Shown here one piece after another: positions 7,373-38,900 of a DNA stretch of 64,000 nt. A program made the translations under genes and the position numbers. Under the pieces are notes generated by a model. That model saw nothing but the letters and a program-made list of their open reading frames with translations, had not been told where the DNA came from and did no database searches. The stretch is from an uncultured Bacteroidia bacterium. GTDB lineage: Bacteria; Bacteroidota; Bacteroidia; Bacteroidales; F082. The stretch is taken from the NCBI GenBank assembly GCA_902770835.1, contig CACXUM010000017.1, positions 9,055-73,054 on the forward strand, in the 5' to 3' direction. Position 1 is the first letter of the stretch; each line of letters begins with the position of its first letter.

Positions 7373-7380
7373 TATTTTTG
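7373..7380 (+). promoter_or_regulatory. -7 promoter box TATTTTTG (ATPase gene)
   Basis: TAnnTTTG match 28 nt upstream of the ATG at 7408. Confidence 0.5.
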
Positions 7381-7407
7381 CAAGGTCAAGATAAAAACGG
7401 AGTCAGT

Positions 7408-8964
7408 ATGAGGAAAGAATTCAATGTCACAGGAAGTTGCAATCCGCAAAGACATTATATGGTTGATACGGAGAAACGCTTCAAAGCCGTTGAAAACCTG
7501 ATTGATAGAGGGAATTATTTCACCATCAACCGAGCACGGCAGTATGGGAAGACGACCATGCTGAACAAGATTTGGTTTAGATTATCGGACAAATATTTGG
7601 TCATCCCACTGAGTTTTGAAGGTTTGGGAGACGAGGCCTTTGCTAGTCCTGCGACTTTTGTCACAACATTCAAAAGGCAAATGGCGAGGCATCTTGTTTC
7701 ACTCCGTCAAAACGAGGCATTGATAGGGATTTGGCAAAACGGCAATGCTTCATCAATAGATGATTTGTCAGAGATTGTCACGGATTTTTGCAGAGCTTGT
7801 CCAAAACCCGTTGTGGTCACCATCGACGAAGTGGACAAGAGTAGCGACAATCAGTTGTTCATGAATTTTTTGGGCATGTTGCGCAACAAATACTTGGAAC
7901 GTGATAAAGAGGGCATGAACTATACTTTCCACAGCATCGTTCTCGCAGGCGTTTACGACATCAAGAACCTCAAACTGAGACTTCGTCCCGACGCTGAAAA
8001 GAAATACAATTCGCCTTGGAACATTGCCGCCGATTTCAACGTGGATATGACTTTCCATCCTGAGGAAATCGCCCAGATGCTCAATGATTACGAGAACGAT
8101 GTGCATTCGGGTATGGACATTAAGGCCATCAGCGAGGAGATCTACAAATACACAACGGGCTATCCTTATTTGGTGAGTGCGATTTGTAAGATTATCGATG
8201 AACGCTTGGAAGCGAAATGGACGCTTGACAACGTGCAGCAAGCCGTGAAAATCATCGCGATAGGCGAAAATGTCACCCTTATTGACGACCTCTCAAAGAA
8301 CATCGAGAACAACATTGAACTGAGAGATTTCCTCTTTTCCATCGTGGTCAACGGAGCGGAATACTCTTTTACAATGGTGGACCCCATTGTCAAACTGGCC
8401 AATATGTTCTCCTATATCCGCAAGAACCAACGTGGCAAGACAATAATCCACAACCTGATTTTCGAAGAGGCCTTGTTTATGTATTTCGGCAATAAGACCA
8501 TGCGCGAACAGGGGACAAAAATCTCTCCGTATGTGCTGAATTATGTTCAAAATGGCAAACTCAATATGGAGCACGTGGTCACCCGTTTCCGTGACCTTAT
8601 GCACGAGGAGTACCGCGAAAGCACCGAGCCTTTCCTCGAAAAGGAAGGCCGTCTGCTGTTTCTCACCTTCCTCAAACCCATCATCAACGGGATCGGGTTC
8701 TACTACGTGGAGCCGCAGACCCGCGACAACCGCCGCATGGACTTGGTGGTGACCTACGACAAGCAGGAGTATATCGTGGAATTGAAGATTTGGCATGGCG
8801 ACAAATACGAGGAACTTGGCCGCGACCAACTTTCAGGCTATCTCGCCACTCGCGGTATGGATGAAGGTTATTTGGTCACCTTCGACTTCTCGAAAAACAA
8901 ACAAGAAGCAGAACCTCAATGGATTGAGTGGAACGGAAAGCGGATTTTTGAGGTGATTGTTTGA
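7408..8964 (+). CDS. AAA-ATPase_like / PD-(D/E)XK (PDDEXK_9-type) fusion protein
   Basis: N-terminal NPQRHYMV and Walker-A-like RQYGKTT, with a C-terminal RMDLVV...YIVELKIW nuclease-like D..ExK motif. Start is placed at the first ATG after the promoter box. Confidence 0.7.
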   Translation: MRKEFNVTGSCNPQRHYMVDTEKRFKAVENLIDRGNYFTINRARQYGKTTMLNKIWFRLSDKYLVIPLSFEGLGDEAFASPATFVTTFKRQMARHLVSLRQNEALIGIWQNGNASSIDDLSEIVTDFCRACPKPVVVTIDEVDKSSDNQLFMNFLGMLRNKYLERDKEGMNYTFHSIVLAGVYDIKNLKLRLRPDAEKKYNSPWNIAADFNVDMTFHPEEIAQMLNDYENDVHSGMDIKAISEEIYKYTTGYPYLVSAICKIIDERLEAKWTLDNVQQAVKIIAIGENVTLIDDLSKNIENNIELRDFLFSIVVNGAEYSFTMVDPIVKLANMFSYIRKNQRGKTIIHNLIFEEALFMYFGNKTMREQGTKISPYVLNYVQNGKLNMEHVVTRFRDLMHEEYRESTEPFLEKEGRLLFLTFLKPIINGIGFYYVEPQTRDNRRMDLVVTYDKQEYIVELKIWHGDKYEELGRDQLSGYLATRGMDEGYLVTFDFSKNKQEAEPQWIEWNGKRIFEVIV

Positions 8965-9080
8965 CGAAATAGTTGAACGCCAAACAGACTGCACAGGGAG
9001 AAGGGGAATTGCTGTTGGATGGTGATAGGGTATGAAAAACTGAAGGATAGAAGAAAAAGATAAAGATAAATAGAAGATAC

Positions 9081-9117
9081 GAAAATAAAACGATGGAGAG
9101 TCACCCCTCCATCGTTT
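9081..9117 (-). terminator. Hairpin terminator after the small minus-strand ORF
   Basis: 11-bp stem AAACGATGGAG/CTCCATCGTTT followed by TATTTTC on the - strand. Confidence 0.4.
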
Positions 9118-9128
9118 AGCATTGCAAA

Positions 9129-9332
9129 TTACGCATCAACTTCAAATGATAACGTCTTTTTGCAAATGCTCTTTAAAAACCAACAACCTTGAAGTGCCAC
9201 AAAGAAATACTCATTGTTTTGAAAATAGCAGCCTTCGTTTGGGTTGGCACCGATTAATAATTTTGTGATTACCATAAAACTATGTTTTAGATAAGCATAT
9301 ACAAAGATATTGTTTTTTATGGGATATTGCAA
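9129..9332 (-). CDS. Hypothetical small protein (67 aa) in an AT-rich islet
   Basis: An ORF followed directly by a hairpin terminator. No promoter box or recognisable family was seen. Confidence 0.2.
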   Translation of the reverse strand: MQYPIKNNIFVYAYLKHSFMVITKLLIGANPNEGCYFQNNEYFFVALQGCWFLKSICKKTLSFEVDA

Positions 9333-9416
9333 TAGATTAAGCTTTCATATTGGATAATCGATATAAAATTACTTATAGGTTCTGATTTTTTTCCTCATAA
9401 TATGCAATTATTTTCC

Positions 9417-9424
9417 TACTTTTG
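9417..9424 (+). promoter_or_regulatory. -7 promoter box TACTTTTG (orphan lipoprotein)
   Basis: TAnnTTTG match upstream of the ATG at 9503. Confidence 0.45.
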
Positions 9425-9502
9425 CATCAGATAGAAGAGTTTTTTCGATTAGGTGATGCATTACGAATAAATAGCAGTCTGTATGATAAAACAAAAGAAA
9501 CT

Positions 9503-9982
9503 ATGAAGAAGTTCGTTCTCCTAAATATTGTGATTTGCATTTTCGGATTGATTGGATGCAATCATATTAATCAAAAGCAATCATTAACAGAGGATGTAGT
9601 TGATTTTAACCAATGGTATCTGAAAGAACATCCTAATAAAATCGCTGTTGCAACGTCCTTCATACCAACTGTTGATATCAATTATATTGATGGTTTATCA
9701 TTGGAGGAACTCATTATACAGAATTGTTATAAAGAAAAAACTACCTATACTTGTGAGGATGCGCTTGAATTTAGACGAGAGCTTAATGCAAATCATCATG
9801 TTTCATTTAAATTTGTGCCTGATAGTTCAAATTTGGCTAAAGCATATTGTTTGGAAGACCCTTCCCATTTCAAGAAATATAATAGCGAGTATTGTAACAA
9901 TGTGTGTATAAAGTATAAAGAAACTCTGCGTAAGGAAAATGAACAGAAAACCCAGGAAATATGGGATAAATATTTGGAGTAA
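9503..9982 (+). CDS. Hypothetical Cys-rich lipoprotein
   Basis: MKKFVLLNIVICIFGLIGC is a signal peptide with lipobox. The gene is AT-rich relative to its flanks. No family was recognised. Confidence 0.55.
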   Translation: MKKFVLLNIVICIFGLIGCNHINQKQSLTEDVVDFNQWYLKEHPNKIAVATSFIPTVDINYIDGLSLEELIIQNCYKEKTTYTCEDALEFRRELNANHHVSFKFVPDSSNLAKAYCLEDPSHFKKYNSEYCNNVCIKYKETLRKENEQKTQEIWDKYLE

Positions 9983-10057
9983 TTATTTAGGCAAGATTAA
10001 GTTGATTTCTTCAAATACTCATCTCAAAATATTTTGTGCATAGAGAAAGGCAAATCC

Positions 10058-14655: not shown

Positions 14656-15873
14656 ATGCCACAAATATCCAAAAAAGGTCTGGATTTGCCGCAGTCGGCT
14701 ATCCGTAAACTTGTTCCTTTTGCCGATGCCGCCAAGGAACGCGGTGTCCATGTGTATCACCTCAACATCGGCCAGCCCGACATCGAGACCCCGAAGGGTG
14801 CTTTGAAGGTTTTGGCTGAGACCGCCAAGGAACTTCCGGCCAGCCACGGTGTGTTGGAATACAGCCACTCGGCGGGCATCCCGTCCTATCGTCGTGCCTT
14901 GTGCAACTATTACCATAGGCATGGTATCGATGTCACGCCTAACCAAGTGCTTGTCACCACGGGCGGTAGCGAGGCTTTGCAAATGGCCTTCACAGTGTGC
15001 CTCAACCCGGGCGACGAAATCATCATCCCAGAACCTTATTACACCAATTATAACACCTTCGCCAAGTTGTGCGATGCCAAGATTGTCACCATCCCCAGCG
15101 ACATCAAGACGGGCTTTGCCCTGCCGCCCATCGAGGAATTTGAGAAGGTCATCACGCCGCGCACCAAGGCCATCATGATTTGCAACCCCAACAACCCGAC
15201 GGGCTATCTTTATACCCACGAGGAACTGCTGAAGGTGGCCGGATTGGTCAAGAAATATGACCTGTATCTTTTTGCTGACGAGGTGTATCGCGAGTTCTGC
15301 TACGATGGCCATAAGCACGTCAGTGTCATGCAGTTGGAAGGCTTGGAGCGCAACACCATTTTGTTCGACTCTGTTTCGAAGCGTTATAGCGCATGTGGTG
15401 CCCGCGTGGGCTGCATGGTGACCCGCAATAGTGAGGTCTATGCCATCGCCATGCGTTTGGCTCAGGCTCGGTTGTCGCCGCCGTCGTTTGGTCAGATTTT
15501 CGCTGAGGCCGCCGTCGACACGCCGCAAGAGTATTTTGATGCCGTGCAAAGCGAGTATGTGGCCCGCCGCAATGTCATCGTTGAGGGTGTCAACAAGATT
15601 CCGGGCTGCTTCTGCCCGATGCCGAAAGGTGCTTTCTACACCGTCATCGACTTGCCCATTGACGACAGCGACAAGTTCTGCCAGTGGCTGCTCACCGATT
15701 TCAGTTACAATGGTGCTACTGTCATGCTGGCTCCTGCCACGGGCTTCTATGCCGACCCCGAAAAAGGCCGTCATCAGGCTCGTATCACCTACTGCATCTG
15801 CATTGACGATTTGAAGGCCGCCATGAAGTGCCTCGAAGAAGCCTTGAAGGTGTATCCGGGGAGAACGAGATAA
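14656..15873 (+). CDS. PLP-dependent aminotransferase, class I/II (aspartate aminotransferase-like)
   Basis: 405 aa with a SVSKRYSACGARVG lysine motif and an N.G.P start, typical of the class I fold. Confidence 0.85.
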   Translation: MPQISKKGLDLPQSAIRKLVPFADAAKERGVHVYHLNIGQPDIETPKGALKVLAETAKELPASHGVLEYSHSAGIPSYRRALCNYYHRHGIDVTPNQVLVTTGGSEALQMAFTVCLNPGDEIIIPEPYYTNYNTFAKLCDAKIVTIPSDIKTGFALPPIEEFEKVITPRTKAIMICNPNNPTGYLYTHEELLKVAGLVKKYDLYLFADEVYREFCYDGHKHVSVMQLEGLERNTILFDSVSKRYSACGARVGCMVTRNSEVYAIAMRLAQARLSPPSFGQIFAEAAVDTPQEYFDAVQSEYVARRNVIVEGVNKIPGCFCPMPKGAFYTVIDLPIDDSDKFCQWLLTDFSYNGATVMLAPATGFYADPEKGRHQARITYCICIDDLKAAMKCLEEALKVYPGRTR

Positions 15874-15898
15874 AGTAATTTATGATATAATTCATGTA

Positions 15899-15925
15899 GG
15901 GCTGTCACATTGTGGCAGCCTTTTT
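15899..15925 (+). terminator. Intrinsic terminator after the aminotransferase gene
   Basis: GGGCTGTCAC ATT GTGGCAGCC hairpin followed by T5. The hairpin sequence is near-identical to the core of the repeats at 24020 and 24376. Confidence 0.7.
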
Positions 15926-15979
15926 CTTTATGTAATTTTTTCTTGTCGAGAAAAACATTTTGGGATTTTCTGCAACCTA

Positions 15980-16810
15980 TCAAATAATCCCCTCCAATGC
16001 CGCCCGAAATTCTGGCATTGGGCAGTGCGTGTCGCGCTCAATGATGAGTGTTTTGAGTCCGGCGAAGGGCAAGATTTTCTTTTCTATTTCATTGAGGGTA
16101 AGGTTCTTGCCGAAATAGGCAGGGGCAAAGGCTTCCCAAAACTTGATGGAGGTGGTTTTCTCCATGTGGAAAGTCTCGCGGATGAAGTCTTCGTGGCTGA
16201 GTTTGCAACTCAGGTAAACCATGCCCACATCGAAAAGGGGATTGCCGTAGCAGAAATCACCTAAATCGATGAAATAGCGTTGGTTGGGCGTGAAGATGGC
16301 ATTGGAAAACTGTAAGTCGCCGTGGATGGCTGTGTCAGTGTCGGGAACGCTGTCGATGAAGTTTCCAATCTTTTCCTTTTCGTCTGTCGTGAAAAACGGG
16401 TTCTCTGCCAAAAGCCTATGGTAGCGATCTTTTACATTTTCAAATTGTTTCGTATCCACATGGGTTTCATGCAGTTGCAGGCACATTTGTGCAAATTCCT
16501 CAGCGTATTGTTTCACCTTTTCGGGATGGTCGCCCGTGGCACGAGAATAGGAAACTTTGTTCAAAATGCGTCGGAATCTGATGCCATAGCGGCCGTCCTC
16601 GGTCACCACGTAGTCACCGGGTTCGGGCGTGGAAATGCCTGACTCATAAACCATTCGGGCAAGTCTCATTTCGTCCAACGGCTGCTGGATTTTTCCGGGG
16701 AAATAGAGTTTGAGCATTACCGTCGGGTCGGTCTTGTGGTCGTAACTCTCGCCGTTGGCCCCGCCGCCACTGAGGACATAGTCGTCCAAGGAAATTTTGA
16801 TGGCTTCCAT
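15980..16810 (-). CDS. Phosphotransferase, APH/choline-kinase family
   Basis: HGDLQFSNAIF catalytic loop and an IDLGDF metal-binding motif. Confidence 0.75.
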   Translation of the reverse strand: MEAIKISLDDYVLSGGGANGESYDHKTDPTVMLKLYFPGKIQQPLDEMRLARMVYESGISTPEPGDYVVTEDGRYGIRFRRILNKVSYSRATGDHPEKVKQYAEEFAQMCLQLHETHVDTKQFENVKDRYHRLLAENPFFTTDEKEKIGNFIDSVPDTDTAIHGDLQFSNAIFTPNQRYFIDLGDFCYGNPLFDVGMVYLSCKLSHEDFIRETFHMEKTTSIKFWEAFAPAYFGKNLTLNEIEKKILPFAGLKTLIIERDTHCPMPEFRAALEGII

Positions 16811-16834
16811 TTGCTATGGTTTGGATTTCTGCGA

Positions 16835-16842
16835 CAAAAGTA
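16835..16842 (-). promoter_or_regulatory. -7 promoter box TACTTTTG (APH-family gene)
   Basis: CAAAAGTA on the + strand, 25 nt upstream of the start at 16810. Confidence 0.5.
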
Positions 16843-16882
16843 GAAAAAAGATTCGGAAATCGTTTTGCTTTTCAAGTTTTTG

Positions 16883-16890
16883 TATTTTTG
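16883..16890 (+). promoter_or_regulatory. -7 promoter box TATTTTTG (partner-switching/alarmone operon)
   Basis: TAnnTTTG match 20 nt upstream of the ATG at 16910. Confidence 0.5.
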
Positions 16891-16909
16891 CTGCAATTAT
16901 TCTATTGAT

Positions 16910-17902
16910 ATGGGAGGCAAATCTTTTTCGGGCAGACTGACTTTGAGAATCATTGGTATTATGTCGTTGATTACCATCGTGTCACAATTCGTGATGGCCG
17001 TGGTTTCACAAATCATCATTGCCAAAGAAGTGACACGTCATCCCGGATTGGAGCAGCATCCGATAGATATTTTGCTCCATTCGCTGCCTATGCAGATTTC
17101 GTTGATTGTCATTCTGTTGGCAAGCATTGTGGTGATGTTTTTCGTTTGCCGTCGTGTCATCAGCCGTATGGCGAGTCCAGTCGATCGCATCGAGTCGGAT
17201 TTGGTTTTGGCCCGCAAAATCCAGCTTGGGATGTTGCGCACTGATTTTCCCCCCATGTTATATGCGTTGCTCAATCCGGCCAAGAGGGTTGGCGGCGACC
17301 TGTACGACTTCACCATTAAAGACGACCAACTCTATTTTGCCATCGGCGATGTGTCGGGCAAGGGCATTGCTGCCTCGTTGGTGATGGCCATCACGAGGGT
17401 GATGCTCCGTTTCGTGGTGGGATCGGGGCTGCCTTTGGACGAGACTTTGCGTCGTATCAACGATGAATTCAGTGCAACCAATAAAACAGGCATGTTTGTG
17501 ACCTTGTTTGTCGCCCGCGTCGACTTGAAAACGGGCCACATGGACTTCTGCAATGCGGGTCACAATCCCATCCTCGTCATCCCGCCTGATGCTGAGCCTT
17601 ATTTCCTCAAATGCAAAACGAATATCGCCGTTGGCATGTTCGAGAAATTCAACTACGAGGCGGAACAGATTGACCTGAAGCAGGGTACGCGAATCATTGC
17701 CTATACCGATGGCGTGACCGAAGCCGAAAAAGCCGACCAAAGCCTGTATGGAAACGAGCGTCTGTTGGAATGGTCGAAGACATTGAAAAACAACGAATTA
17801 ATTGAAAAAGATGTGGTTGAACGCCTTTATGCTTCGGTTCAAACCTTTGCCGAAGGCAATCCACAGAATGACGACATAACCATTGTTAGTTTACGATTAT
17901 GA
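16910..17902 (+). CDS. Membrane-anchored PP2C/SpoIIE-family Ser phosphatase (RsbU-like)
   Basis: Two N-terminal TM helices, then GGDLYDF, FAIGDVSGKGIAASL, NAGHNP, YTDGVTEA and NDDITIV PP2C motifs. Confidence 0.85.
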   Translation: MGGKSFSGRLTLRIIGIMSLITIVSQFVMAVVSQIIIAKEVTRHPGLEQHPIDILLHSLPMQISLIVILLASIVVMFFVCRRVISRMASPVDRIESDLVLARKIQLGMLRTDFPPMLYALLNPAKRVGGDLYDFTIKDDQLYFAIGDVSGKGIAASLVMAITRVMLRFVVGSGLPLDETLRRINDEFSATNKTGMFVTLFVARVDLKTGHMDFCNAGHNPILVIPPDAEPYFLKCKTNIAVGMFEKFNYEAEQIDLKQGTRIIAYTDGVTEAEKADQSLYGNERLLEWSKTLKNNELIEKDVVERLYASVQTFAEGNPQNDDITIVSLRL

Positions 17903-18318
17903 AAAAGAAACGATTTAATCCCATCACCGACCGGAGCAGCGAAATCATCACTTTTCTGATGGCTTCGCCCGACATGCCCGACGATGCCGACCTGCGTTTC
18001 AAGATTGAACTTTCCATCGAGGAAGCCGTTGAAAATGTGGTGCGCTATGCCTATGAAGGCGGCATTGGTTGGCTTGAGGCGGGTACGCATTTGGATGATA
18101 AGTCATTGATACTTACCATCGAACTGCGCGATGCTGGCAAGCCTTTCAATCCACTCGAAGAAGCCGACCCCGACATCACGCTTTCGGCGAATGAGCGTCC
18201 CGTTGGCGGTCTCGGTATCTACCTCTGCAAACAGATGATGGACAGCATCACCTATCGCTATGAGGACGGTAACAATGTGCTCATAATGAAGAAATTAGTC
18301 AGCCCGGAAAGGGCGTAA
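17899..18318 (+). CDS. RsbW/SpoIIAB-like anti-sigma-type Ser kinase (HATPase_c_2)
   Basis: N-box EEAVENVVRYAY, G1 DAGKPFNP and G2 GGLGIYL. Its ATG overlaps the phosphatase stop (ATGA). Confidence 0.8.
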   Translation: MKKKRFNPITDRSSEIITFLMASPDMPDDADLRFKIELSIEEAVENVVRYAYEGGIGWLEAGTHLDDKSLILTIELRDAGKPFNPLEEADPDITLSANERPVGGLGIYLCKQMMDSITYRYEDGNNVLIMKKLVSPERA

Positions 18319-18366
18319 CACTACAACCCGACATTTCATGTCGGGGGCAAACAAGAAGTGAAGAAT

Positions 18367-18669
18367 ATGAACATTACCATAAACAAACAAGGTGGAAAAA
18401 CCCTCGTTGTGCTTGACGGGCGCATCGACAGTTCGAATTCCGACCGATTCCAAAAGGACATGGCACCGCTGATGGAAGGCGACAGCCCCGACATCGACAT
18501 CGACTGTGGGGGAATGACTTACACTTCGTCGCAGGGCCTGCGCATTTTCCTTTTGCTGCAAAAAAGTGTGATGGCACGCAAAGGCAAATTGGTGATGCGC
18601 AACATGAATTCCCATGTGAAAGAGGTCTTCGACATCACAGGTTTTTCAAATATCATCACCATCATCTGA
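18367..18669 (+). CDS. STAS-domain protein (RsbV/SpoIIAA-like antagonist)
   Basis: About 100 aa with a conserved phosphorylatable-Ser region (MTYTSSQGLRIF) and a C-terminal V.EVFDITGF. The start could also be GTG at 18358. Confidence 0.8.
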   Translation: MNITINKQGGKTLVVLDGRIDSSNSDRFQKDMAPLMEGDSPDIDIDCGGMTYTSSQGLRIFLLLQKSVMARKGKLVMRNMNSHVKEVFDITGFSNIITII

Positions 18670-18674
18670 ACGCC

Positions 18675-19754
18675 ATGAAACGCAACATGCACACGGAGTT
18701 GCTGCTTGATGCCTATCACGAGCAACTTCCTCTTTATGAGAAACTTAAATCCATCGTCGTTGAGCAGATTTACACTTGCTTGCATGAAAACCATATCCGT
18801 ATTGCCGGATTGGAATCCCGCATCAAGGAGGAGAAGAGTTTGGCGAACAAGTTGGAGTTGAAGGGCTATAAGTATCATTCAATCAATGATGTAACGGATA
18901 TTGTTGGCATTCGTGTCATCACATTTTTCAGTGATGAGGTGGACATTATTTCGGCTCTTGTGGAACAGATGTTCGACATTGATTGGGAAAACTCCGTCGA
19001 CAAGCGCAAGTCATTGGAAATCGACCGTTTCGGCTACATGTCGCTGCATTATATTTGCCGTTTGCCTGGGTCGATTTGCAAGGAGGCCGACATGCTGGAG
19101 CTGTGCCAAATCCGTTTTGAGTTGCAGATGCGGAGCGTGTTGCAACACATGTGGGCCAACATGTACCACGACATGGGCTACAAGAGTGATGTGGAAATTC
19201 CCGTTGAGTATCAGCGCAATATGAACCGATTGGCGGGCATGTTGGAGTTGGCCGACGAGCAGTTTAGCCGTATTCGCAGGGAGATTAACGATTACCGCCG
19301 CAATGTGCAGTCGCTTGTGGCGACAGGCAATTTCGACGAAGTTCCCTTAAACGGCGATACCTTCCGCAGTTATCTTGACTTGAAACCCTACCAGCGTTTG
19401 ATGGAGAAAATCGCGGCCATCAATCAGGCGGAGATTTACGAAGACAGCCTGATACCGTATTATAACGTGTTGTTGCACATGGGCATGAGGACCGTAGGCG
19501 ATATTGAGCGGTTGCGCAACAAATACAGTGACGGAGCCTATCAGTTGGCGCTCCTCCAATTGGCTGGCACGGGTCTCGACATTGTGGCCTATTCGGTGGC
19601 TCTGCAAAACATTTGCATCGTGGCCATCCTCAAACAGGGTTTCGGCGAGGCGGGATTGATACGCCTTTTCGCGGCCCTTTACGGCGAAAGTGCCTACAAT
19701 GCACAACGCGCCGAGCGTGTTTTTGAGCAAGCCCGAAAAATCAATTTAGTGTGA
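18675..19754 (+). CDS. RelA/SpoT-domain small alarmone synthetase with a ~150-aa C-terminal extension
   Basis: Synthetase motifs are RIKEEKSL, DIVGIRVI, GYMSLHY and ELQMRSVLQHMWANMYHDMGYK. Starts 5 nt after the STAS stop. Confidence 0.8.
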   Translation: MKRNMHTELLLDAYHEQLPLYEKLKSIVVEQIYTCLHENHIRIAGLESRIKEEKSLANKLELKGYKYHSINDVTDIVGIRVITFFSDEVDIISALVEQMFDIDWENSVDKRKSLEIDRFGYMSLHYICRLPGSICKEADMLELCQIRFELQMRSVLQHMWANMYHDMGYKSDVEIPVEYQRNMNRLAGMLELADEQFSRIRREINDYRRNVQSLVATGNFDEVPLNGDTFRSYLDLKPYQRLMEKIAAINQAEIYEDSLIPYYNVLLHMGMRTVGDIERLRNKYSDGAYQLALLQLAGTGLDIVAYSVALQNICIVAILKQGFGEAGLIRLFAALYGESAYNAQRAERVFEQARKINLV

Positions 19755-19759
19755 AAACC

Positions 19760-20323
19760 ATGAATAACCCATTGGAAACCAGTCTTTTCGATAAAGCGGT
19801 TAAGTTAGCCGTCGAAGCCCACAGCGGCACTGAGCGGCGTTGCAAAGGCTATCCCTATATCATCCATCCCATGGAGGCCGCCGCCATTGTGGCCACTATG
19901 ACCAACGATCAAGAAATGCTGGCCGCCGCCATTTTGCATGATGTGGTGGAAGATACCGACGTGACCCTTGAGCAAATCCGCGATGAGTTTGGCGACCGTG
20001 TGGCCACGCTCGTCCAACATGAAACCGCGCCCGACGACGAAAACCTGACTTGGCGCGAGAAGAAGTCGATACAAGTGGAACAACTGGCTGCCGCGCCCAT
20101 CGACAGCAAGATTGTTGCCCTCGGCGACAAGCTATCCAATATGCAAGGCATTGCCTTGGACTATCGTCAAGTTGGCGACGCGGTTTGGAGTCGCTTTCAT
20201 ACCCCAAACGGAAAGCCCGATGTGGAGTGGTATTACCGCTCACTCGCAAAGGCTCTGTCGGAGTTGTCGGAATTGGCTGCCTATCAGGGTTTTGTGAAGT
20301 TGTTGGGAGAAACTTTCGGATAG
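19760..20323 (+). CDS. HD-domain (p)ppGpp hydrolase-like protein (small alarmone hydrolase, Mesh1/SpoT-HD type)
   Basis: YPYIIHPMEAAAIV and AAILHDVVEDT motifs (HD_4-like). Lies 5 nt after the synthetase stop, or overlaps it by 4 nt if GTG 19751 is the start. Confidence 0.8.
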   Translation: MNNPLETSLFDKAVKLAVEAHSGTERRCKGYPYIIHPMEAAAIVATMTNDQEMLAAAILHDVVEDTDVTLEQIRDEFGDRVATLVQHETAPDDENLTWREKKSIQVEQLAAAPIDSKIVALGDKLSNMQGIALDYRQVGDAVWSRFHTPNGKPDVEWYYRSLAKALSELSELAAYQGFVKLLGETFG

Positions 20324-21568
20324 TCAATACATCAGATACTTCGCCCGAATTGCCTTGAAAGCCACAAGGTCGTTTTGCCACGAAGCGCGGATTTCGTCTG
20401 CGCTTTTTCCGTTTTCGATGTCGCGCTGCAATTGCTGGTTGCCTGAAAGTTTCACGAAGTAATTGTTGAAGAAATTCTTGTCTTTCAGTTGCTGGTAAGC
20501 CTCAATGAGCCATTCCAAATGCAACTGATTGGCATTGAGCGCATAATCGTGGGCAAATTCAACCAAGTTTTCACCACGGCAACGTTGTCCTTCAAGCAAT
20601 GGTTTTGAGGCTCCACTTGTGCTTTTTGGCGTGAAAGTGAAACTGCCGCGCATGTCAGGGTGACCATATATCTGGAAAGGCGTTTCCGTGCCGCGACCGA
20701 TGCTGACGATGGTGCCCTCGAAGAAACAAAGGGTGGGGTAGAGGTACACCGATTCCCAGTTGGGCAGGTTGGGCGAGGGGCGCACGGGCAACTCATAGAT
20801 GGCGTTGCGGTTGTATTTATTAATAGGTATCACGGTGAGGTCGCAGCGGATGCCGTTCTTCAGCCAGCTTTCGCCGTTCACCATTTTGGCATACTCGCCG
20901 ATGGTCATGCCATAGACGACGGGGACTTGGTGCATTCCCACAAACGATTGGTTTTCAGTCTTCAAAACAGGGCCATCCACATAAAAACCATTTGGGTTGG
21001 GGCGGTCGAGGACGATGACGGGAAGGTTGTTTTCGGCGGCGGCCTCCATGACGTAGGTCATCGTGGAAATGTAGGTGTAGAACCTCACGCCAACATCCTG
21101 CAAGTCGAAGAGAATCACATCGATGCCTTGAAGCATTTCGGGCGTGGGTTTCTTGTTTTTGCCGTAAAGCGACACGATAGGCAGGCCCGTTTTCTCGTCC
21201 TTGGCGCTATTCACTTTCGCGCCCGCATCAGCCGTGCCACGGAAGCCATGTTCGGGCGTGAAGATTTTCCGCACATCCACGCCCAAAGAAAGCAGCATGT
21301 CCACCAAATGCGTTTCTCCAACAATGCTCGTTTGGTTGCCAACCACACCAACTCGTTTTCCTCGCAGAAGTGGCAGGTAATCATCCATTTGCATAGCGGC
21401 GGAAACATAGTGTTCCTTGTCAATAAAAGCAAGTTGAGACGTTACCAAATTGGCTGGCTTTTGCGTTTTGATTCTGTTGTTTGGCTCATTGTCCATCTTG
21501 AAGATTTGGGCTTGGGCTGGCGCAAGGAAAGCGCATAGCAGCAGGGCGAAAAAGGATTGTCGTTTCAT
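20324..21568 (-). CDS. namZ: DUF1343 / NamZ-like exo-beta-N-acetylmuramidase
   Basis: Signal peptide followed by GKRVGVVGNQTS, TPEHGFRG, ILFDLQDVGVRFYTY and DRPNP motifs, typical of DUF1343. Confidence 0.8.
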   Translation of the reverse strand: MKRQSFFALLLCAFLAPAQAQIFKMDNEPNNRIKTQKPANLVTSQLAFIDKEHYVSAAMQMDDYLPLLRGKRVGVVGNQTSIVGETHLVDMLLSLGVDVRKIFTPEHGFRGTADAGAKVNSAKDEKTGLPIVSLYGKNKKPTPEMLQGIDVILFDLQDVGVRFYTYISTMTYVMEAAAENNLPVIVLDRPNPNGFYVDGPVLKTENQSFVGMHQVPVVYGMTIGEYAKMVNGESWLKNGIRCDLTVIPINKYNRNAIYELPVRPSPNLPNWESVYLYPTLCFFEGTIVSIGRGTETPFQIYGHPDMRGSFTFTPKSTSGASKPLLEGQRCRGENLVEFAHDYALNANQLHLEWLIEAYQQLKDKNFFNNYFVKLSGNQQLQRDIENGKSADEIRASWQNDLVAFKAIRAKYLMY

Positions 21569-21588
21569 TTCAGAAGTGTTTTGTTTTG

Positions 21589-21596
21589 CAAAAGTA
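21589..21596 (-). promoter_or_regulatory. -7 promoter box TACTTTTG (namZ-like gene)
   Basis: CAAAAGTA on the + strand, 21 nt upstream of the start at 21568. Confidence 0.5.
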
Positions 21597-21649
21597 TTGA
21601 AATTTATGCAAATTTAGTGCCTAAAGGTTTCGCCGAACCAATTTTTCCC

Positions 21650-21657
21650 TATTTTTG
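21650..21657 (+). promoter_or_regulatory. -7 promoter box TATTTTTG upstream of the structured RNA / long leader
   Basis: TAnnTTTG match about 40 nt upstream of the base of the rod-like hairpin. Confidence 0.45.
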
Positions 21658-21696
21658 CCCCGAATTGGCTCGCCAGTTCGGACTTTATGAACTTTA

Positions 21697-21874
21697 GAAG
21701 CGTTATGCTTCTTTGTACTTGAGAACCTGCGAAATTTTCAAGTAAAATGATAAAGGAAGTCGTATAACGGCTTCACGCTGTTTAGCGTGTAGCTGTTATT
21801 ACATTCTTTATTACGGGTTTTCGCAGGACCTTCAAGTACGATGTGATATAACACAGCGCACGCTTCTTTTGTTT
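21697..21874 (+). ncRNA. Candidate structured RNA (rod-like ~170-nt hairpin; 6S-like sRNA or 5' leader)
   Basis: Hand-paired stems: 21697-21703/21860-21866 (7 bp), 21715-21734/21819-21839 (18 bp with a 2x3 loop), and 21764-21779/21784-21799 (15 of 16 bp). A TTTTGTTT tract follows. Confidence 0.35.
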
Positions 21875-21954
21875 GGTGTTGACGGTGGGAGAATCTGCTA
21901 AATTGTTTGAAAATCAGTAACTAACAAGTTTAATAAACATCAAAAAACGGAAAA

Positions 21955-22290
21955 ATGGACAAAAAGAGAAAGAAGAAAAACCTCGCGTTTTCACTTCTGT
22001 TGGCAACAGGAATGCTGTTCCCTTCTCATCTGCCTGCACAGGAACAAAACGATAGGCCGGGAGGTCTGTTTGGTGAAACTACCCCGACTGTTTCCGACGG
22101 CCTGATGCGCAGAAACGAAGGCACTGCTGGAGGCTATTTCACAGGGCAGGGTTTCGGAGCCACAAGCGGCAACATCACAGGCCAAACTTTTGGCGCACCT
22201 TTGAGCAGCGGATTGCTCGTCATGCTCGCGGCAGGTGCAGGTTATGCAACAATTAAATCAAGGAAAAAACAAAACAGAAAGGAAAAATGA
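21955..22290 (+). CDS. Small Gly-rich secreted protein with a C-terminal TM helix and basic tail
   Basis: N-terminal signal peptide (..HLPAQEQ), a repeated TGQ(G/T)FGA motif, and the C-terminus SGLLVMLAAGAGYATIKSRKKQNRKEK. Its stop overlaps the next ATG (ATGA). Confidence 0.55.
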   Translation: MDKKRKKKNLAFSLLLATGMLFPSHLPAQEQNDRPGGLFGETTPTVSDGLMRRNEGTAGGYFTGQGFGATSGNITGQTFGAPLSSGLLVMLAAGAGYATIKSRKKQNRKEK

Positions 22291-23891
22291 ACATGAAAAA
22301 GATTAGTATTTTCGTAACGGTATTGGCGTTTTTGGTAGCCCTGACGCAATGCAAAAAGGAACAAGCAACTCCTGCCAATGATGGCAAAAACTTTGACATC
22401 ACCTTGGACATCAAGAGCGGTAACGGCACAAGAATGGATGTGAACACAAGCACGGGCGAAGTCACATACGAGACTGGCGACGTGATTTATGTGGCCAGTG
22501 GTGGAACATTCATTGGCACGCTGACACACAACGGTACAAACTTCGCTGGCACCATCACCAACCCAACCGTGGGCGAACCACTTGACTTCTATTTCTTGGG
22601 CAATGTGACCCCAGCCGAAACCCTCACGGCGGGCACAACGACAACTTGTTCCGTGGTCATCAGCGACCAAACGGAGCATTTGCCCGTGATTGAATATGCG
22701 CCGTCCAACGAAACCTATAATTCGGGTGTGACCACTTTCACCGCCCATCTGCTCAACAAGTGTGCCTTGGTGAAGTTCAATGTGACGACTTCATCGGAGG
22801 CTGCTACTTGCATTACTGGGATGAAAAACAAGGTGACGGTGAGTTTTGCCGACAATACTTTGACCCACAGCCAGGAAGGTAACGGCGTGATCACTTTGCC
22901 TGCTGGCAGTGGAGAAAAGTGGGCTATTTTATTGCCTCAAGAGGCTTTGGAGGGAGGTCTTGCCTATTCCGAAGATGGAGATTATACTGGCACACGCGGT
23001 GCTGTTCCTGCTGTTTATGAGAATGGATACTTTACAGTGGGCATCGAAGTGAATGTGACAACTGAAGTAAACCCTGGTGAAGTTCCTGTTGGTGCTATAT
23101 GTGGGAAGTTCACTATCAATTCCGATGGAGACCAAGTGTATTTCTCGCAGGGGAATTTGCAATACATTGGTAGTGCAACCATACCTTATTGGAAGTTTGC
23201 CGAGAACCAATGGGATTATTTCGGTGACGTTAGTGCTGGCCAAAATGTTGACCGCGATCTGTTTGGCTGGGGCACCAGTGGTTGGAACAATGGGAATATG
23301 TATTACCAGCCATACGATACCGAGAGTTTTTGGGATAGTGAAACAGGTTATGGTTACGGCCCCACCGACGGGACGAACTACAACTATGATTTGACAGGCG
23401 ACTACGCCAATGCCGACTGGGGCGTTTACAATGCCATCAGCAATGGCGGCAACACACCAAACCAATGGCGCACTTTGACCCAGCCCGAATGGGAGTATAT
23501 TATCTTCTCACGCAATACGCCTTCGGGTATTCGTTATGCCAAAGGTATCGTGAATGGAGTGAACGGTGTTATTCTGCTGCCAGATAATTGGAGTGCTTCA
23601 GTTTATGCTTTGAACTACACCAACAAGTACAGCGCACCTTTCAACACGAACGAAATCACATCAGAGAATTGGGCCTTGATGGAAAACAACGGTGCTGTCT
23701 TCTTGCCCGCTGCGGGCAGCCGCCAAGTGGGTGGTAACAGTGAAAGCCACGGATGCTATTGGTCAACCTCTTCCTTTTTCAGTGCATCTTTCTCGTACCG
23801 CGTGTTCTTCGATGATTCTGCCCTCGTCATGGACTGCATCGACCGCTTTGTAGGTCAAAGTGTGCGCCTCGTTGCCCCAGTCGAGAATTGA
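22287..23891 (+). CDS. Lipoprotein: fimbrillin-like N-terminal domain plus FISUMP/DUF1566-like C-terminal domain
   Basis: Lipobox ALTQC. The N-terminal half resembles fimbrillin-family beta domains. The C-terminal half has WGTSGW, NQWRTLTQPEWEYI, AVFLPAAGSR and GCYWSTS motifs. Confidence 0.6.
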   Translation: MNMKKISIFVTVLAFLVALTQCKKEQATPANDGKNFDITLDIKSGNGTRMDVNTSTGEVTYETGDVIYVASGGTFIGTLTHNGTNFAGTITNPTVGEPLDFYFLGNVTPAETLTAGTTTTCSVVISDQTEHLPVIEYAPSNETYNSGVTTFTAHLLNKCALVKFNVTTSSEAATCITGMKNKVTVSFADNTLTHSQEGNGVITLPAGSGEKWAILLPQEALEGGLAYSEDGDYTGTRGAVPAVYENGYFTVGIEVNVTTEVNPGEVPVGAICGKFTINSDGDQVYFSQGNLQYIGSATIPYWKFAENQWDYFGDVSAGQNVDRDLFGWGTSGWNNGNMYYQPYDTESFWDSETGYGYGPTDGTNYNYDLTGDYANADWGVYNAISNGGNTPNQWRTLTQPEWEYIIFSRNTPSGIRYAKGIVNGVNGVILLPDNWSASVYALNYTNKYSAPFNTNEITSENWALMENNGAVFLPAAGSRQVGGNSESHGCYWSTSSFFSASFSYRVFFDDSALVMDCIDRFVGQSVRLVAPVEN

Positions 23892-35912: not shown

Positions 35913-38900
35913 TTACTCCACCATGATTTTCTGCACTTTCACATCGTTTCCATTGATGAGGCGGAACAAGTAGATGCCGGGAGCGGCGTTCACACTGATA
36001 CTGGCGCAGCCGTTGATGCTTTCACGCTTGATAATGCGGCCTGTGATGTCAATTACCTGCAACTTGGCATGGCCCTCGTTGCTGATGACGAAGCTGCCAT
36101 TGCTATAGAAGGCAAAGTCATTGTCGTCGTTTGTGTCCCCGCAAACGAACACCAGTTTGAAGCGGCTCTCATAGTCAGTCGTCTTGGCCTCGAAGCTATA
36201 ATTCGGGGTCTTTAGCAGGTCGATGTCGTTGCCCGTCATATTATCAATGAGATGCAGATAGCTGAATCTCACCTCATCAGTGTTGAGGCTGATGGTGTAG
36301 GAGCCGTTGGCCTCAGCCTTGAAATTGACGGGCAAGGTGCCCATGTCTTCACTGCTTACCACCGCGAAGTCCTTGCCGTTTTGCGAGATGTAGAGCTTGG
36401 TGTGGTTCCGATTGAGTTGGAACTTGGGCAGTTGACGGCTTTCACCAAAGCGGATGATAGCACGGTCGATGACGTTGCCACGGTCTTGGCTGAGGTTCAG
36501 GGCAATCCCCCTCTTCTGAGAGCCTCTGGAAACTGTGGTGAAGCTAATGAGTTCTGCGTCATTGTTAGCATGGACAAAGACGCCTTCCATGGGCTGAATG
36601 GTTCCATTGGAAGCATCGGCCATCACTTCTGCACCTCCTTCGGCAAGACGATAGAAGTCGCGGCCATCGGCAATGTTGGCTTCCACGGCGAAGGGGTTGC
36701 CCACCAAGTTTATGCCAGGGAACTCGGCATCTGTATCATGGACAAGGGTGACTCCATGAATATCAGTGTTGGCAGTGCCGGCAAAGACGAGGTTGATGCC
36801 TTGTCCGTTGTTGCCGCTGTTGGCATAGAGGTAGCCTTGGCCTGACTGGAGGTTGAAGCCGGGGTTGTGGTTTCCTTCGGCTTCCTTATAGTTGACCCAT
36901 TCGCGGACTTGGGCTTGGTCGAAGTAATAGAGGTCGTACACATTATCGAGCATGCCACCCACATTGGTAGGACTGACTTCACCGATGGGCGATGCAATCA
37001 AATAGTAGCCTCCGTTGTCGGTGTAAGGATCGATGTGCTTGGTATAGAATGATGGCATGGTGAAAACGGCCGCATTGCTCCATTCTGTGGTGCTGCCATT
37101 GCCGTCGCAGTTGATGCCTTGCACTTTATACTGATACGTGGTTTGGGCGCAAAGGTCCGGCAACGTATAGGGGTTGGTGACGTTGTTGACCGTGGTCCAA
37201 GCGCTTCCGTTATCGGTGATGGTGACATTGACACCGTCAGTCGGACCGAAAATTTTCACAGTAAATACGTATGTTTTACCTGCCTCAAACACGTAGTTGT
37301 CTTGACGGCTTTTCACATTGCCATCGTCAGAAGCGATATAAATTTTGTCGTTAGAAGTCGGGTTGGCGATGCACCAGTCGTAGGTGCCAGCAGGAATCTG
37401 GATAGTGATAGTGTTGTTGACCACGATGTTTTGGGCAGTGCATGAAGGATCCGCATTAGAAGGAATCTTGTATTCAAATGCGTTGTACAGCGTCTGATCA
37501 ATTTCACAGCTGGTGGTTAAAGAGCCGCTCGTGGGGATGATGGTACCGTAGGAGTTGGCATCGGCATCAATAAGCATTTGATAGCCTGAACCATCTGGCC
37601 ATATATTGCCAACGGTCAGTGTGATGGTAGCGGTTGCGTTGGGGTCAAACTCACGATATTGAATGTTGTAAGTATCGGCATCACCGGTCCAGCTGAGTTG
37701 TCTGTTGCCTGTGACTTCCGTGGTGAGTTCGGTAGGAGCGTCGCAGCCGAAAGGCGTGGTGAAAGTGAAGCTGCCCGACCATTCGCTTGGATATTCTTCG
37801 CAGCAGACGGTCTGTACCTGTACTTCGTATGTCGTTTCATCTTCAAGGTCGGTGATGTCGAGGCTGTTGTTGTTAGTAGTAACAGAGATCCAATCTTCAG
37901 CCTCTTGTGTGACATAGATGCCAAAGTCGTCGAGGTCGAGTTGATACTTATTTCGGGAGTTATAGTGGCGGATGGCGATGTAGCCCATGACACCGTTATA
38001 GCTGCTGAGATCAACGGTGACTTCCTTGAATTCAAAATTTGTACTGTTGGAGGCAATTCTTTCTTCGCCAACCATGTCGAAATCCTCGATGGCCGTGGTT
38101 CCCGTGGAAACGTAAACGCCATAATGCTCTTGCCAATTGCTGATGCTGCCCATCACTGAACTAACCCAGAACTTCAACGTTCCTTTGAGTGTAACTCTAG
38201 GTGTGATGATCCAATCGTCGGGATCGTGTTCAAAACTGTATGAGGACATGCATCCGGCACCAGAGTGAGCAGTCGTATTATCTTCAAACATCCATTTGCT
38301 GCCGTCGCCATCGTTGTCCACGATAGTCCAACCTGAAGGCAGGCCGTTTTCAAAGTCTTCGAAGAGGGGAGTGCCAGCATAAGAGGCCTTTCTATATCTC
38401 ACGTTGTAGCTTGCCGCTTCACCTTCCCAGTTCACAGTGGCAGAGGTGGGCTTCAAGTTGGTCACGGAAAATTCGGTCTCGGTGGGGAACGGACAAGAGA
38501 TGGGCATGGTGATGGCGTCGCTCACTTGTCCGCAATGGCTGCTCACGCGTACCTTATACGCTGTGTAGGGTTCGAGGTCCTCGAAGGAATAGGGGCTGGT
38601 GGCATTGTCGGCCACAGTTTCCCAAGTGATGGTGGAAGTTGCCACAGGAGCCGTGATGGAGATGTCGTCCAAATAGACTTGATGCTTGTTGTTGCTATTG
38701 TAATGGAAGGCAATATACTTCACATTGGCGGCAAGGTCAAGCCAGTAATTCTGCCAATTTTCTTCGAGACTGACATCGTTCCAGATGAACGCATTCAAAT
38801 CGTTGGTGGTAGTGGAATAACCCACCTGTAAGCTCTCAGGAAATTCTTCATATTTCTTTTTATAGAAGAACTCAAGCTCTGCAGCACTTGTCAAGTATAA

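Follow-up and report, generated by a model that had tools for sequence, protein, structure and literature searches.

We analyzed a 64,000-nucleotide stretch of a contig from an uncultured Bacteroidia bacterium (CACXUM010000017.1; hereafter, the window), in which a SpoIIE/PP2C-type phosphatase (PP2C), an RsbW/SpoIIAB-type kinase and a STAS protein are encoded beside a small alarmone synthetase (SAS), a small alarmone hydrolase (SAH) and a kinase of the APH fold. We consider it reasonably probable that the partner switch formed by the first three proteins sets SAS activity post-translationally, and that SAH and the APH-fold kinase are counter- or companion enzymes within a conserved six-domain module. 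An earlier note on this DNA had described five of the genes; their common strand, tight spacing and junctions were read from the sequence as it had reported, and its family assignments (SpoIIE/PP2C, RsbW-like, STAS with the phospho-Ser region, RelA/SpoT and HD) were confirmed by Pfam searches and motifs. The sixth gene had been overlooked; as judged from its conservation, the APH-fold kinase is the sixth conserved component of the module and is transcribed divergently here.

Conservation of the partner switch beside SAS

When a single genome was scanned for each species, 80 loci with SAS proteins 50-85% identical were obtained, nearly all from rumen or gut Bacteroidales metagenome-assembled genomes (MAGs) and a few from bins assigned to Akkermansia, Fibrobacter or Firmicutes. 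These loci lie mostly on MAG contigs, where genes were called by a simple open reading frame (ORF) heuristic, and co-occurrence was counted within 6 kb of SAS. STAS was present in 67/80 loci, the RsbW-like kinase in 65/80, SAH in 64/80, PP2C in 58/80 and the APH-fold kinase in 54/80. Partner-switch genes were found in 70 of the 80 loci overall and SAH/APH genes in 67; both sets stood near SAS in 58 loci, partner-switch genes only in 12 (e.g., 'KIN STAS SAS' and 'PP2C-KIN STAS SAS'), SAH/APH only in 9 and neither in 1. Loss of synteny in related genomes, which the earlier note had named as evidence that would count against the module, was therefore not what we observed.

The genes occurred in 39 orders across the 80 loci, with 333 of the 342 module genes on the SAS strand. 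STAS was the gene directly upstream of SAS in 43/80 loci, and SAH or SAH-APH the gene directly downstream in 51/80; 16 loci had no SAH within 6 kb. The minimal 'KIN STAS SAS' and 'PP2C-KIN STAS SAS' loci, which are without SAH or APH, show that the link from the switch to SAS is primary, and the combination and adjacency counts make SAS the hub of two sub-modules, one joining the switch to SAS and the other joining SAS to the hydrolase and the APH-fold kinase. On these gene orders, the linkage between the switch and the alarmone enzymes is not accidental.

Among more distant relatives, one locus with a SAS of 36% identity (L085) still kept SAS, SAH and STAS together, and other SAS relatives at 35-39% identity were stand-alone in unrelated contexts. 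In addition, 56 SAS relatives of ~350-370 aa (L087-L142; 23-46% identical) were found on IMG/VR viral or prophage contigs, and none of the other five domains was found near them. Across these relatives, the ~360-aa SAS family is broad and its linkage to the partner switch, SAH and APH is specific to a clade.

Domain fusions and the position of the sigma factor

The proteins of the module are fused in several combinations. PP2C and the kinase were fused in 34/80 loci, and Pfam searches confirmed dCache/MCP-PDC-(HAMP)-SpoIIE-HATPase_c_2 proteins of 700-790 aa. SAH and APH were fused in 18/80 loci, among which HD_4-APH proteins measure 466-478 aa. Some loci encode larger HD_4-STAS-APH proteins (562-608 aa), and the STAS inside them, read by eye, has no acceptor Ser. 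SAS was joined to HD_4 in P0163 (L150:1208-2794), with the domain order reversed relative to long enzymes of the RelA/SpoT homologue (RSH) family. Finally, three independent sequences (P0123, P0391 and P0392), 81-82% identical to one another and with intact motifs, join the kinase to SAS; P0123 (521 aa) consists of an RsbW-like domain and a SAS, both complete, the latter with its C-terminal domain. Together, these fusions tie all six domains into one network. The kinase-SAS fusion appears to place SAS where a sigma factor would be expected, which supports the suggestion of the earlier note that an alarmone enzyme occupies this position.

The note had also stated that no sigma factor is encoded at the locus, and the searches of the window agreed. 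Using hand-typed RpoE and SigF queries, phmmer returned no sigma-like ORF in the whole window at E<=10, and Pfam searches of candidate window ORFs revealed no sigma factor. When all flanking ORFs were clustered, no sigma family recurred around the 80 loci, and phmmer with the same queries found an ECF sigma factor within 6 kb in 1/80 loci.

Partner-switch proteins

The PP2C matched Pfam SpoIIE (8e-48); its best match in the PDB was Rv1364c (1.5e-14), followed by Pseudomonas response regulators, SpoIIE, RsbX and SiaA (6k4e). The motifs GGDL.D, GDVSGKG, YTDG and DD.T were at least 90% conserved in 58 sequences, with the metal-binding Asp residues in place, and hydrophobic segments were located at residues ~14-38 and ~59-85. 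In orthologues of 622-627 aa, the two transmembrane (TM) helices are separated from the catalytic domain by a periplasmic domain of the Cache type and a HAMP linker; aligned to these, the window PP2C has an internal deletion of ~270 aa that covers the Cache domain plus the HAMP linker. The PP2C of L005 retains the HAMP linker, and those of the window, L008 and L013 are without both. As read from this alignment, the window PP2C is a reduced form that has lost the dCache/HAMP sensor of its relatives. The membrane-signal input envisaged in the earlier note thus stands for the family, in which the phosphatases carry dCache-HAMP, but the window copy is without both domains.

The kinase matched Pfam HATPase_c_2 (2e-18) and NCBIfam RsbW (2e-10), the latter at 40 bits versus a cutoff of 145. 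The window proteins score far below the cutoffs of the RsbW, SpoIIAB and SpoIIAA equivalog models and, by this measure, the window kinase is not an RsbW equivalog. Its N box (EE...N...YAY), G1 box (D.G..F.P) and G2 box (R..GGLGI.L) were at least 90% conserved in 66 sequences, and SpoIIAB (1l0o) matched it weakly (E 0.009). In L045 (L045:8485-9783), the one locus checked for this feature, an N-terminal DAGK_cat/YegS_C region (lipid/NAD-kinase-like) is fused to the HATPase_c_2 kinase domain.

The STAS protein matched Pfam STAS (3e-14) and the anti-sigma-antagonist superfamily model TIGR00377 (2e-18; 66.3 bits, above the 53.45 cutoff). When it was aligned to RsbV (6m36) and SpoIIAA (1th8), Ser58 (103-aa numbering) fell on the DS*SGLG serine, which is SpoIIAA Ser58, and the motif Y.SS.GLR.FL, acceptor Ser58 included, was at least 90% conserved in 69 sequences. 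The locus therefore encodes a PP2C with its Asp motifs, a GHKL kinase and an acceptor-bearing STAS, the components of a partner switch, and no sigma-factor target was found for them in the 64-kb window, nor did one recur in the 80 loci.

Synthetase and hydrolase

SAS matched Pfam RelA_SpoT (4e-17), and a sequence search of the PDB aligned residues ~23-207 with RelP and RelQ (~1e-13) at 20-25% identity. Residues R49, K51, D75, G78, R80, Y121, S123, H125, E149, Q151 and H158 were invariant in 22 sequences of 29-50% identity, and the motifs R.K, D.TD..G.R, FGY.SLHY, FE.Q.R and LQH.W were at least 90% conserved in orthologues (55-81 sequences over the module proteins compared in this way); the protein thus has a RelA_SpoT domain with its catalytic motifs and no HD domain. 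The AlphaFold2 model (pLDDT 91.8) superposed on RelQ/RelP over its N-terminal half only (TMt ~0.8, Foldseek), and it was nearer to these housekeeping enzymes (E ~1e-9) than to the toxSAS structures, CapRel (5e-6) included. In the model, a long helix of 40 residues (177-216) precedes a C-terminal domain of ~140 residues (~216-359). The latter shows conserved motifs across orthologues and had no match in a PDB profile search (best E 0.44), in Pfam (36 members) or by Foldseek against the PDB and BFVD. NCBI labels SAS a 'hypothetical protein', and its family comprises 7,719 representative clusters at E<=1e-3, of which 1,236 remain at E<=1e-30. Homology to its nearest relatives, RelP and RelQ, makes (p)ppGpp/pGpp the likeliest product of SAS, and (p)ppApp (PMC10083569) or tRNA pyrophosphorylation is a possible alternative output.

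SAH (187 aa) is a stand-alone HD_4 domain (Pfam, 5e-21). Its nearest PDB entry was Lmo0812 (4yf1, 8e-27), followed by the bacterial SAHs 7qoe and 7qoc and then by MESH1 (3e-17, 3e-16). The motifs AH..TERR.KG.PY..H, LHD..EDT and GDKLSN were at least 90% conserved in 62 sequences, with the HD and ED residues present. The ppApp-specific Aph1 (7smg) ranked far below Lmo0812, CgSAH and MESH1, with a weak match (7e-9) that covered only residues 7-95. Aph1 has the signature D24, R96, D116, R119, K133 and Y134 and a short form (149-aa chain) without two helices (PMC10083569); the SAH region opposite Aph1 D24-K25-A26 reads R-R-C/G-K in an alignment that is approximate and not residue-exact.

APH-fold kinase and accessory components

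The sixth protein matched Pfam APH (5e-15) and TIGR02172 (1e-66), the latter at 224.7 bits, just below the cutoff of 228.2; close relatives are named 'TIGR02172 family protein' in databases, and the NCBI label is 'phosphotransferase'. In 55 orthologues, the motifs G.G....S, M.K.Y, HGD....N and ID..DF were at least 90% conserved, as in a kinase fold, and the orthologues, at 51-92% identity, keep the catalytic apparatus of a kinase intact. By sequence, the protein had no match in the PDB with either a single-sequence or a profile query. An AlphaFold2 model built with database homologues (pLDDT 90.2) placed choline/ethanolamine kinase, amicoumacin kinase, LicA, MTR kinase and APH(3') at TM scores of 0.5-0.6, suggesting a resemblance, and only a loose one, to generic small-molecule kinases.

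Searching from the APH side returned the same module, including in a different genomic neighborhood (L145/L146). In these two loci (L145:4633-5844 and L146), a Fic-domain gene (Fic + Fic-like_C) stands between PP2C and the kinase, and the module is otherwise identical. The next commonest flanking family was Y_phosphatase3 (CX5R, tyrosine-phosphatase-like), which was in the cluster and co-directional, at varying positions, in 16/80 loci (L020, L021, L023-L025, L030, L039-L041, L044, L046, L048, L060, L062, L074 and L083). The protein of L024 (L024:3337-4227) begins with a lipoprotein-like signal sequence, and the window has no Y_phosphatase3 gene. Y_phosphatase3 may thus far be counted as a possible seventh member of the module, accessory in nature and paired with the APH-fold kinase.

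Proposed mechanism

The observations behind our proposal are comparative and computational, namely domain content, intact motifs, conserved linkage, fusions and the lack of a sigma factor. We propose that Ser58 of STAS is the site at which the RsbW-like kinase adds a phosphate and PP2C takes it away, as the conserved catalytic and acceptor motifs suggest. In most relatives, an extracellular ligand would set the state of STAS through the periplasmic dCache (+HAMP) portion of PP2C, an architecture that is seen in the proteins and whose function we infer. At the window locus, where the sensor is deleted, the input would be limited to the TM stub, to the expression level or to none. The RsbW-like kinase would hold SAS inactive in the place of a sigma factor, probably via the long helix and the C-terminal domain of SAS; the main argument for this step is the kinase-SAS fusion, joined by the lack of a sigma factor. 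Unphosphorylated STAS would bind the kinase and displace it from SAS, and synthesis would be switched on. With ATP as the donor, SAS would then pyrophosphorylate a purine nucleotide at its 3'-OH; the likeliest acceptor is GDP/GTP, which would give (p)ppGpp, as the similarity of SAS to RelP/RelQ suggests. SAH would take the pyrophosphate off again, and the APH-fold kinase would act on a small molecule of the same pathway.

Several observations weigh against this proposal. The kinase-SAS fusion is rare, comprising three sequences from one narrow clade, and the much commoner fusion of the kinase to the membrane phosphatase fits a SypE/SiaB-like role as 'kinase only' at least equally well. The Ser-less STAS between SAH and APH hints that STAS may dock on the hydrolase side. 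Signal dependence is uncertain at the window locus, since its PP2C is without the sensor, and a single transcript for the five genes is inferred from gene spacing only. Moreover, the G-loop Tyr is common to ppGpp, ppApp and tRNA-modifying enzymes, and the product is not predictable from the SAS sequence; an attempt to tell from sequence whether G, A or tRNA is the acceptor was dropped as unreliable.

The principal rival is a mode of action like that of SiaC or HsbA, in which STAS itself would be the output and would bind SAS (or SAH or APH) according to the phosphorylation state of Ser58, activating or inhibiting it, and the RsbW-like protein would be the STAS kinase with no sequestering role; we regard this as possible though doubtful. 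SiaC, HsbA and BgrV control diguanylate cyclases in just such a manner (PMC8457831). The position of STAS directly upstream of SAS in over half of the loci, with a 5-nt spacer in the window, agrees with this mode, as does the kinase-phosphatase fusion, which resembles a bifunctional enzyme acting on a diffusible STAS; HD_4-STAS-APH fusions exist, and the SAS helix at 177-216 could, speculatively, be a docking stalk in the model. However, the kinase-SAS fusion argues for a direct relationship between these two proteins, no STAS-SAS fusion was found among the sequences examined, and the STAS in SAH-STAS-APH proteins has no acceptor Ser and hence would not be the regulated species. It is rather unlikely, in our view, that the module instead makes and turns over a messenger other than plain (p)ppGpp, such as an alarmone with a further phosphate or with a different base. 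In that case SAS, SAH and the APH-fold kinase (with Y_phosphatase3 where present) would form the synthesis and turnover pathway, and an extracellular ligand would set the messenger level via dCache-PP2C, RsbW and STAS. The module would then contain three antagonistic pairs (protein kinase/phosphatase, pyrophosphokinase/pyrophosphohydrolase and small-molecule kinase/phosphatase) and would represent a new second-messenger pathway confined to Bacteroidales of the gut and rumen and to their neighbors.

The adjacency of SAS and SAH, which overlap or are 5 nt apart in the window and are neighbors in 51/80 loci, recalls FaRel-ATfaRel (PMC7229694) and could indicate a type IV-like toxSAS/SAH toxin-antitoxin or abortive infection system, with SAS as the toxin, SAH as the antidote and the partner switch as the trigger. 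We find this quite improbable. The relatives on viral or prophage contigs speak for it, but they are stand-alone, without the other five domains; SAH is missing within 6 kb in a fifth of the loci; and the module lies amid housekeeping genes with conserved synteny, with no mobile-element genes seen adjoining. PADLOC matched the catalytic core of SAS weakly to the candidate PDC-S33 (5e-11), a point in favor of this reading, but gave nothing for the five partners, and a known defense system was therefore rejected. In addition, the SAS structure is nearest to the non-toxic RelQ/RelP, and an extracellular dCache sensor would suit environmental sensing better than phage sensing. A classical anti-sigma system would have the RsbW-like protein control a sigma factor encoded elsewhere, with SAS, SAH and APH merely co-transcribed members of its regulon. 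The three switch proteins do match the RsbW, RsbV and SpoIIE families, and a 64-kb window leaves room for a sigma gene elsewhere in the genome; however, the window has no sigma-like ORF and only the one locus mentioned above has an ECF sigma factor, the kinase-SAS, SAH-STAS-APH and SAS-SAH fusions would be unexpected under mere co-regulation, and the linkage persists through all 39 gene orders. To our knowledge, SigB/SigF-type group 3 sigma factors, the usual targets of RsbW and SpoIIAB, are not a known feature of Bacteroidota, which also counts against this explanation. We consider it highly improbable.

Comparison with known systems

The earlier note was aware of no characterized example. 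This holds for an RSH output and not for partner switches on messenger synthetases in general, because SiaABCD of Pseudomonas aeruginosa, HsbR/HsbA-HsbD and BgrSTUWV-BgrR are known partner switches that control diguanylate cyclases and cyclic di-GMP (c-di-GMP) (PMC8457831, PMC7647112). As in the present module, a PP2C, a Ser/Thr kinase and a STAS-like phosphoprotein are encoded there with a nucleotide-messenger synthetase and without a sigma output, and the PP2C domain of SiaA is among the PDB matches of the window PP2C. The output of those systems is a GGDEF cyclase, whereas here it would be an RSH-family pyrophosphokinase with an HD_4 hydrolase and an APH-fold kinase; SiaABCD-type systems have a DUF1987 protein with Thr, whereas the window has a canonical TIGR00377 STAS with a Ser acceptor. 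The present module family also differs from them in its kinase-synthetase fusion and in the dCache sensor of the relatives.

With RsbU/V/W-sigma B and SpoIIE/SpoIIAA/SpoIIAB-sigma F of Bacillus, the module shares the three protein families, the position of the acceptor Ser and the GHKL motifs; it differs in that no sigma factor is in the window or recurs in the 80 loci, and in its phosphatase, which sits in the membrane and in relatives bears a Cache sensor. SypE-SypA of Vibrio fischeri and Rv1364c of M. tuberculosis contain an RsbW-like kinase fused to PP2C that acts on STAS, and the dCache-HAMP-PP2C-HATPase_c_2 proteins of the relatives likewise join an antagonistic kinase and phosphatase in one polypeptide; in contrast, the window kinase and phosphatase are separate and the linked output enzymes are RSH-type.

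RelP and RelQ of Firmicutes (SAS2 and SAS1) are the best sequence and fold matches for SAS residues 23-207 and share all synthetase motifs, but the window SAS carries the additional conserved C-terminal domain. RelP and RelQ are controlled by transcription and by allosteric pppGpp or RNA and are not known to be controlled by partner switching. FaRel-ATfaRel resembles the locus in that a SAS gene is followed at once, possibly with overlap, by a SAH gene; here, however, the chromosomal context is conserved, four more partners are present, SAH is not always adjacent and SAS is nearer to RelQ/RelP.

A full-text literature search, which covered few subscription-journal papers, found no report of a partner switch coupled to an RSH enzyme and no paper on TIGR02172 kinases, and the surveys of RSH enzymes that were consulted made no mention of the arrangement. 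The RSH output class, the accessory kinase and the putative SAS regulatory domain would thus be new here, and the module would not be categorically new, because there are precedents for partner switches controlling c-di-GMP synthesis. The control of small alarmone synthetases is mainly attributed to transcription, to allosteric ligands (nucleotides or RNA) and to antitoxins. If our proposal is correct, a conserved partner-switch input, combined in most members with an extracellular Cache sensor, would add a new principle to the regulation of RSH enzymes, and the environment would feed directly into (p)ppGpp-type signaling in Bacteroidales that are abundant in gut and rumen. The finding also provides a testable context for three uncharacterized pieces, namely the TIGR02172 APH-fold kinases, the SAS C-terminal domain and the sigma-less RsbW/STAS pairs of Bacteroidota.

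Layout of the locus

The + strand at 16865-20323 holds five co-directional, closely spaced ORFs (PP2C, kinase, STAS, SAS and SAH), listed with the other features in Table 1. The PP2C probably starts at ATG 16910. PP2C and the kinase share an ATGA overlap at 17899-17902, the gap between the kinase and STAS is 39 nt (GTG start) or 48 nt (ATG start), that between STAS and SAS is 5 nt, and SAS and SAH have either a GTGA overlap or a 5-nt gap, depending on the start. Because orthologue lengths (STAS 100 aa, SAH 187 aa) match the ATG starts at 18367 and 19760, these were favored.

Table 1. Features of the partner-switch/alarmone locus in the window.
Feature	Position	Strand	Basis
APH-fold kinase (choline/aminoglycoside-kinase-like, TIGR02172 family)	15980..16810	-	Pfam, NCBIfam, motifs, fold
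Divergent intergenic region, 99 bp, with back-to-back Bacteroidota-type -7 boxes	16811..16909	.	Consensus matches only
Candidate -7 box TACTTTTG of the APH gene	16842-16835	-	Consensus match
Candidate -7 box TATTTTTG	16883-16890	+	TAnnTTTG match; 20 nt 5' of the PP2C ATG
SpoIIE/PP2C Ser/Thr phosphatase, membrane-anchored (two TM segments + catalytic domain)	16910..17902 (ORF from 16865)	+	Pfam SpoIIE
RsbW/SpoIIAB-type GHKL serine kinase, 139 aa	17899..18318	+	Pfam HATPase_c_2
Single-domain STAS, anti-sigma-antagonist type	18367..18669 (alternative start 18358)	+	Pfam STAS, TIGR00377
Candidate STAS phospho-acceptor Ser58 codon	18529-18531	+	Alignment to RsbV/SpoIIAA
Small alarmone synthetase (SAS), 359 aa	18675..19754	+	Pfam RelA_SpoT, RelP/RelQ similarity
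SAS C-terminal domain, residues ~216-359	19320-19751	+	Conserved motifs
Small alarmone hydrolase (SAH), HD_4, Mesh1-like/Lmo0812-like	19760..20323 (alternative start 19751)	+	Pfam HD_4
Terminator-like hairpin + T-run, within convergent NamZ gene	20382..20406	+	Consensus scan only

The promoter box that the earlier note had placed ahead of the operon was recovered as a consensus match, and the operon has just one further + strand TAnnTTTG match, at 19050 within the SAS gene. The APH gene has a candidate box of its own, TACTTTTG, and the APH gene and the operon therefore appear to diverge from the 99-bp region. The whole window contains 48 TAnnTTTG matches versus 34.8 +/- 6.3 in shuffles, and several of those checked sit just 5' of ORF starts; this excess and placement are consistent with Bacteroidota-type promoters and a Bacteroidales origin of the window. 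The hairpin at 20382-20406, 59 nt past the SAH stop, is possibly the end of the operon, although terminator-like sites in this region were no commoner than in shuffles. Rfam gave no match at E<=1 over 15500-22000, and therefore no riboswitch or leader RNA was recognized there. The spacer between the kinase and STAS genes contains a perfect hairpin of 8 bp, CCCGACAT TTC ATGTCGGG, at 18327-18345; this hairpin was rejected as a functional element and considered incidental because of its weak fold z-score (-1.6) and its absence from L005, where the orthologous spacer is ~3 nt.

Neighboring genes

NamZ and an aminotransferase were rejected as members of the module because they adjoin it only in the closest relatives. 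Downstream of NamZ, the stretch 21955-23891 (+) encodes a 111-aa protein and a 534-aa putative lipoprotein with a 4-nt overlap and no Pfam match; this stretch is absent from the syntenic L001, where MacB/FtsX directly follows NamZ. Farther away, a 2,336-aa ORF at 35913-42923 (-) with MAM, Cleaved_Adhesin, DUF2436 and fn3 domains has the look of a surface adhesin or protease-type protein. On the other side of the module, the gene at 7378-8964 (+) encodes a 528-aa protein with an AAA_35/predicted AAA-ATPase domain and a C-terminal PD-(D/E)XK nuclease domain (PDDEXK_3), and the GC content falls to 0.395 at 8001-10000, near this ATPase-nuclease gene.

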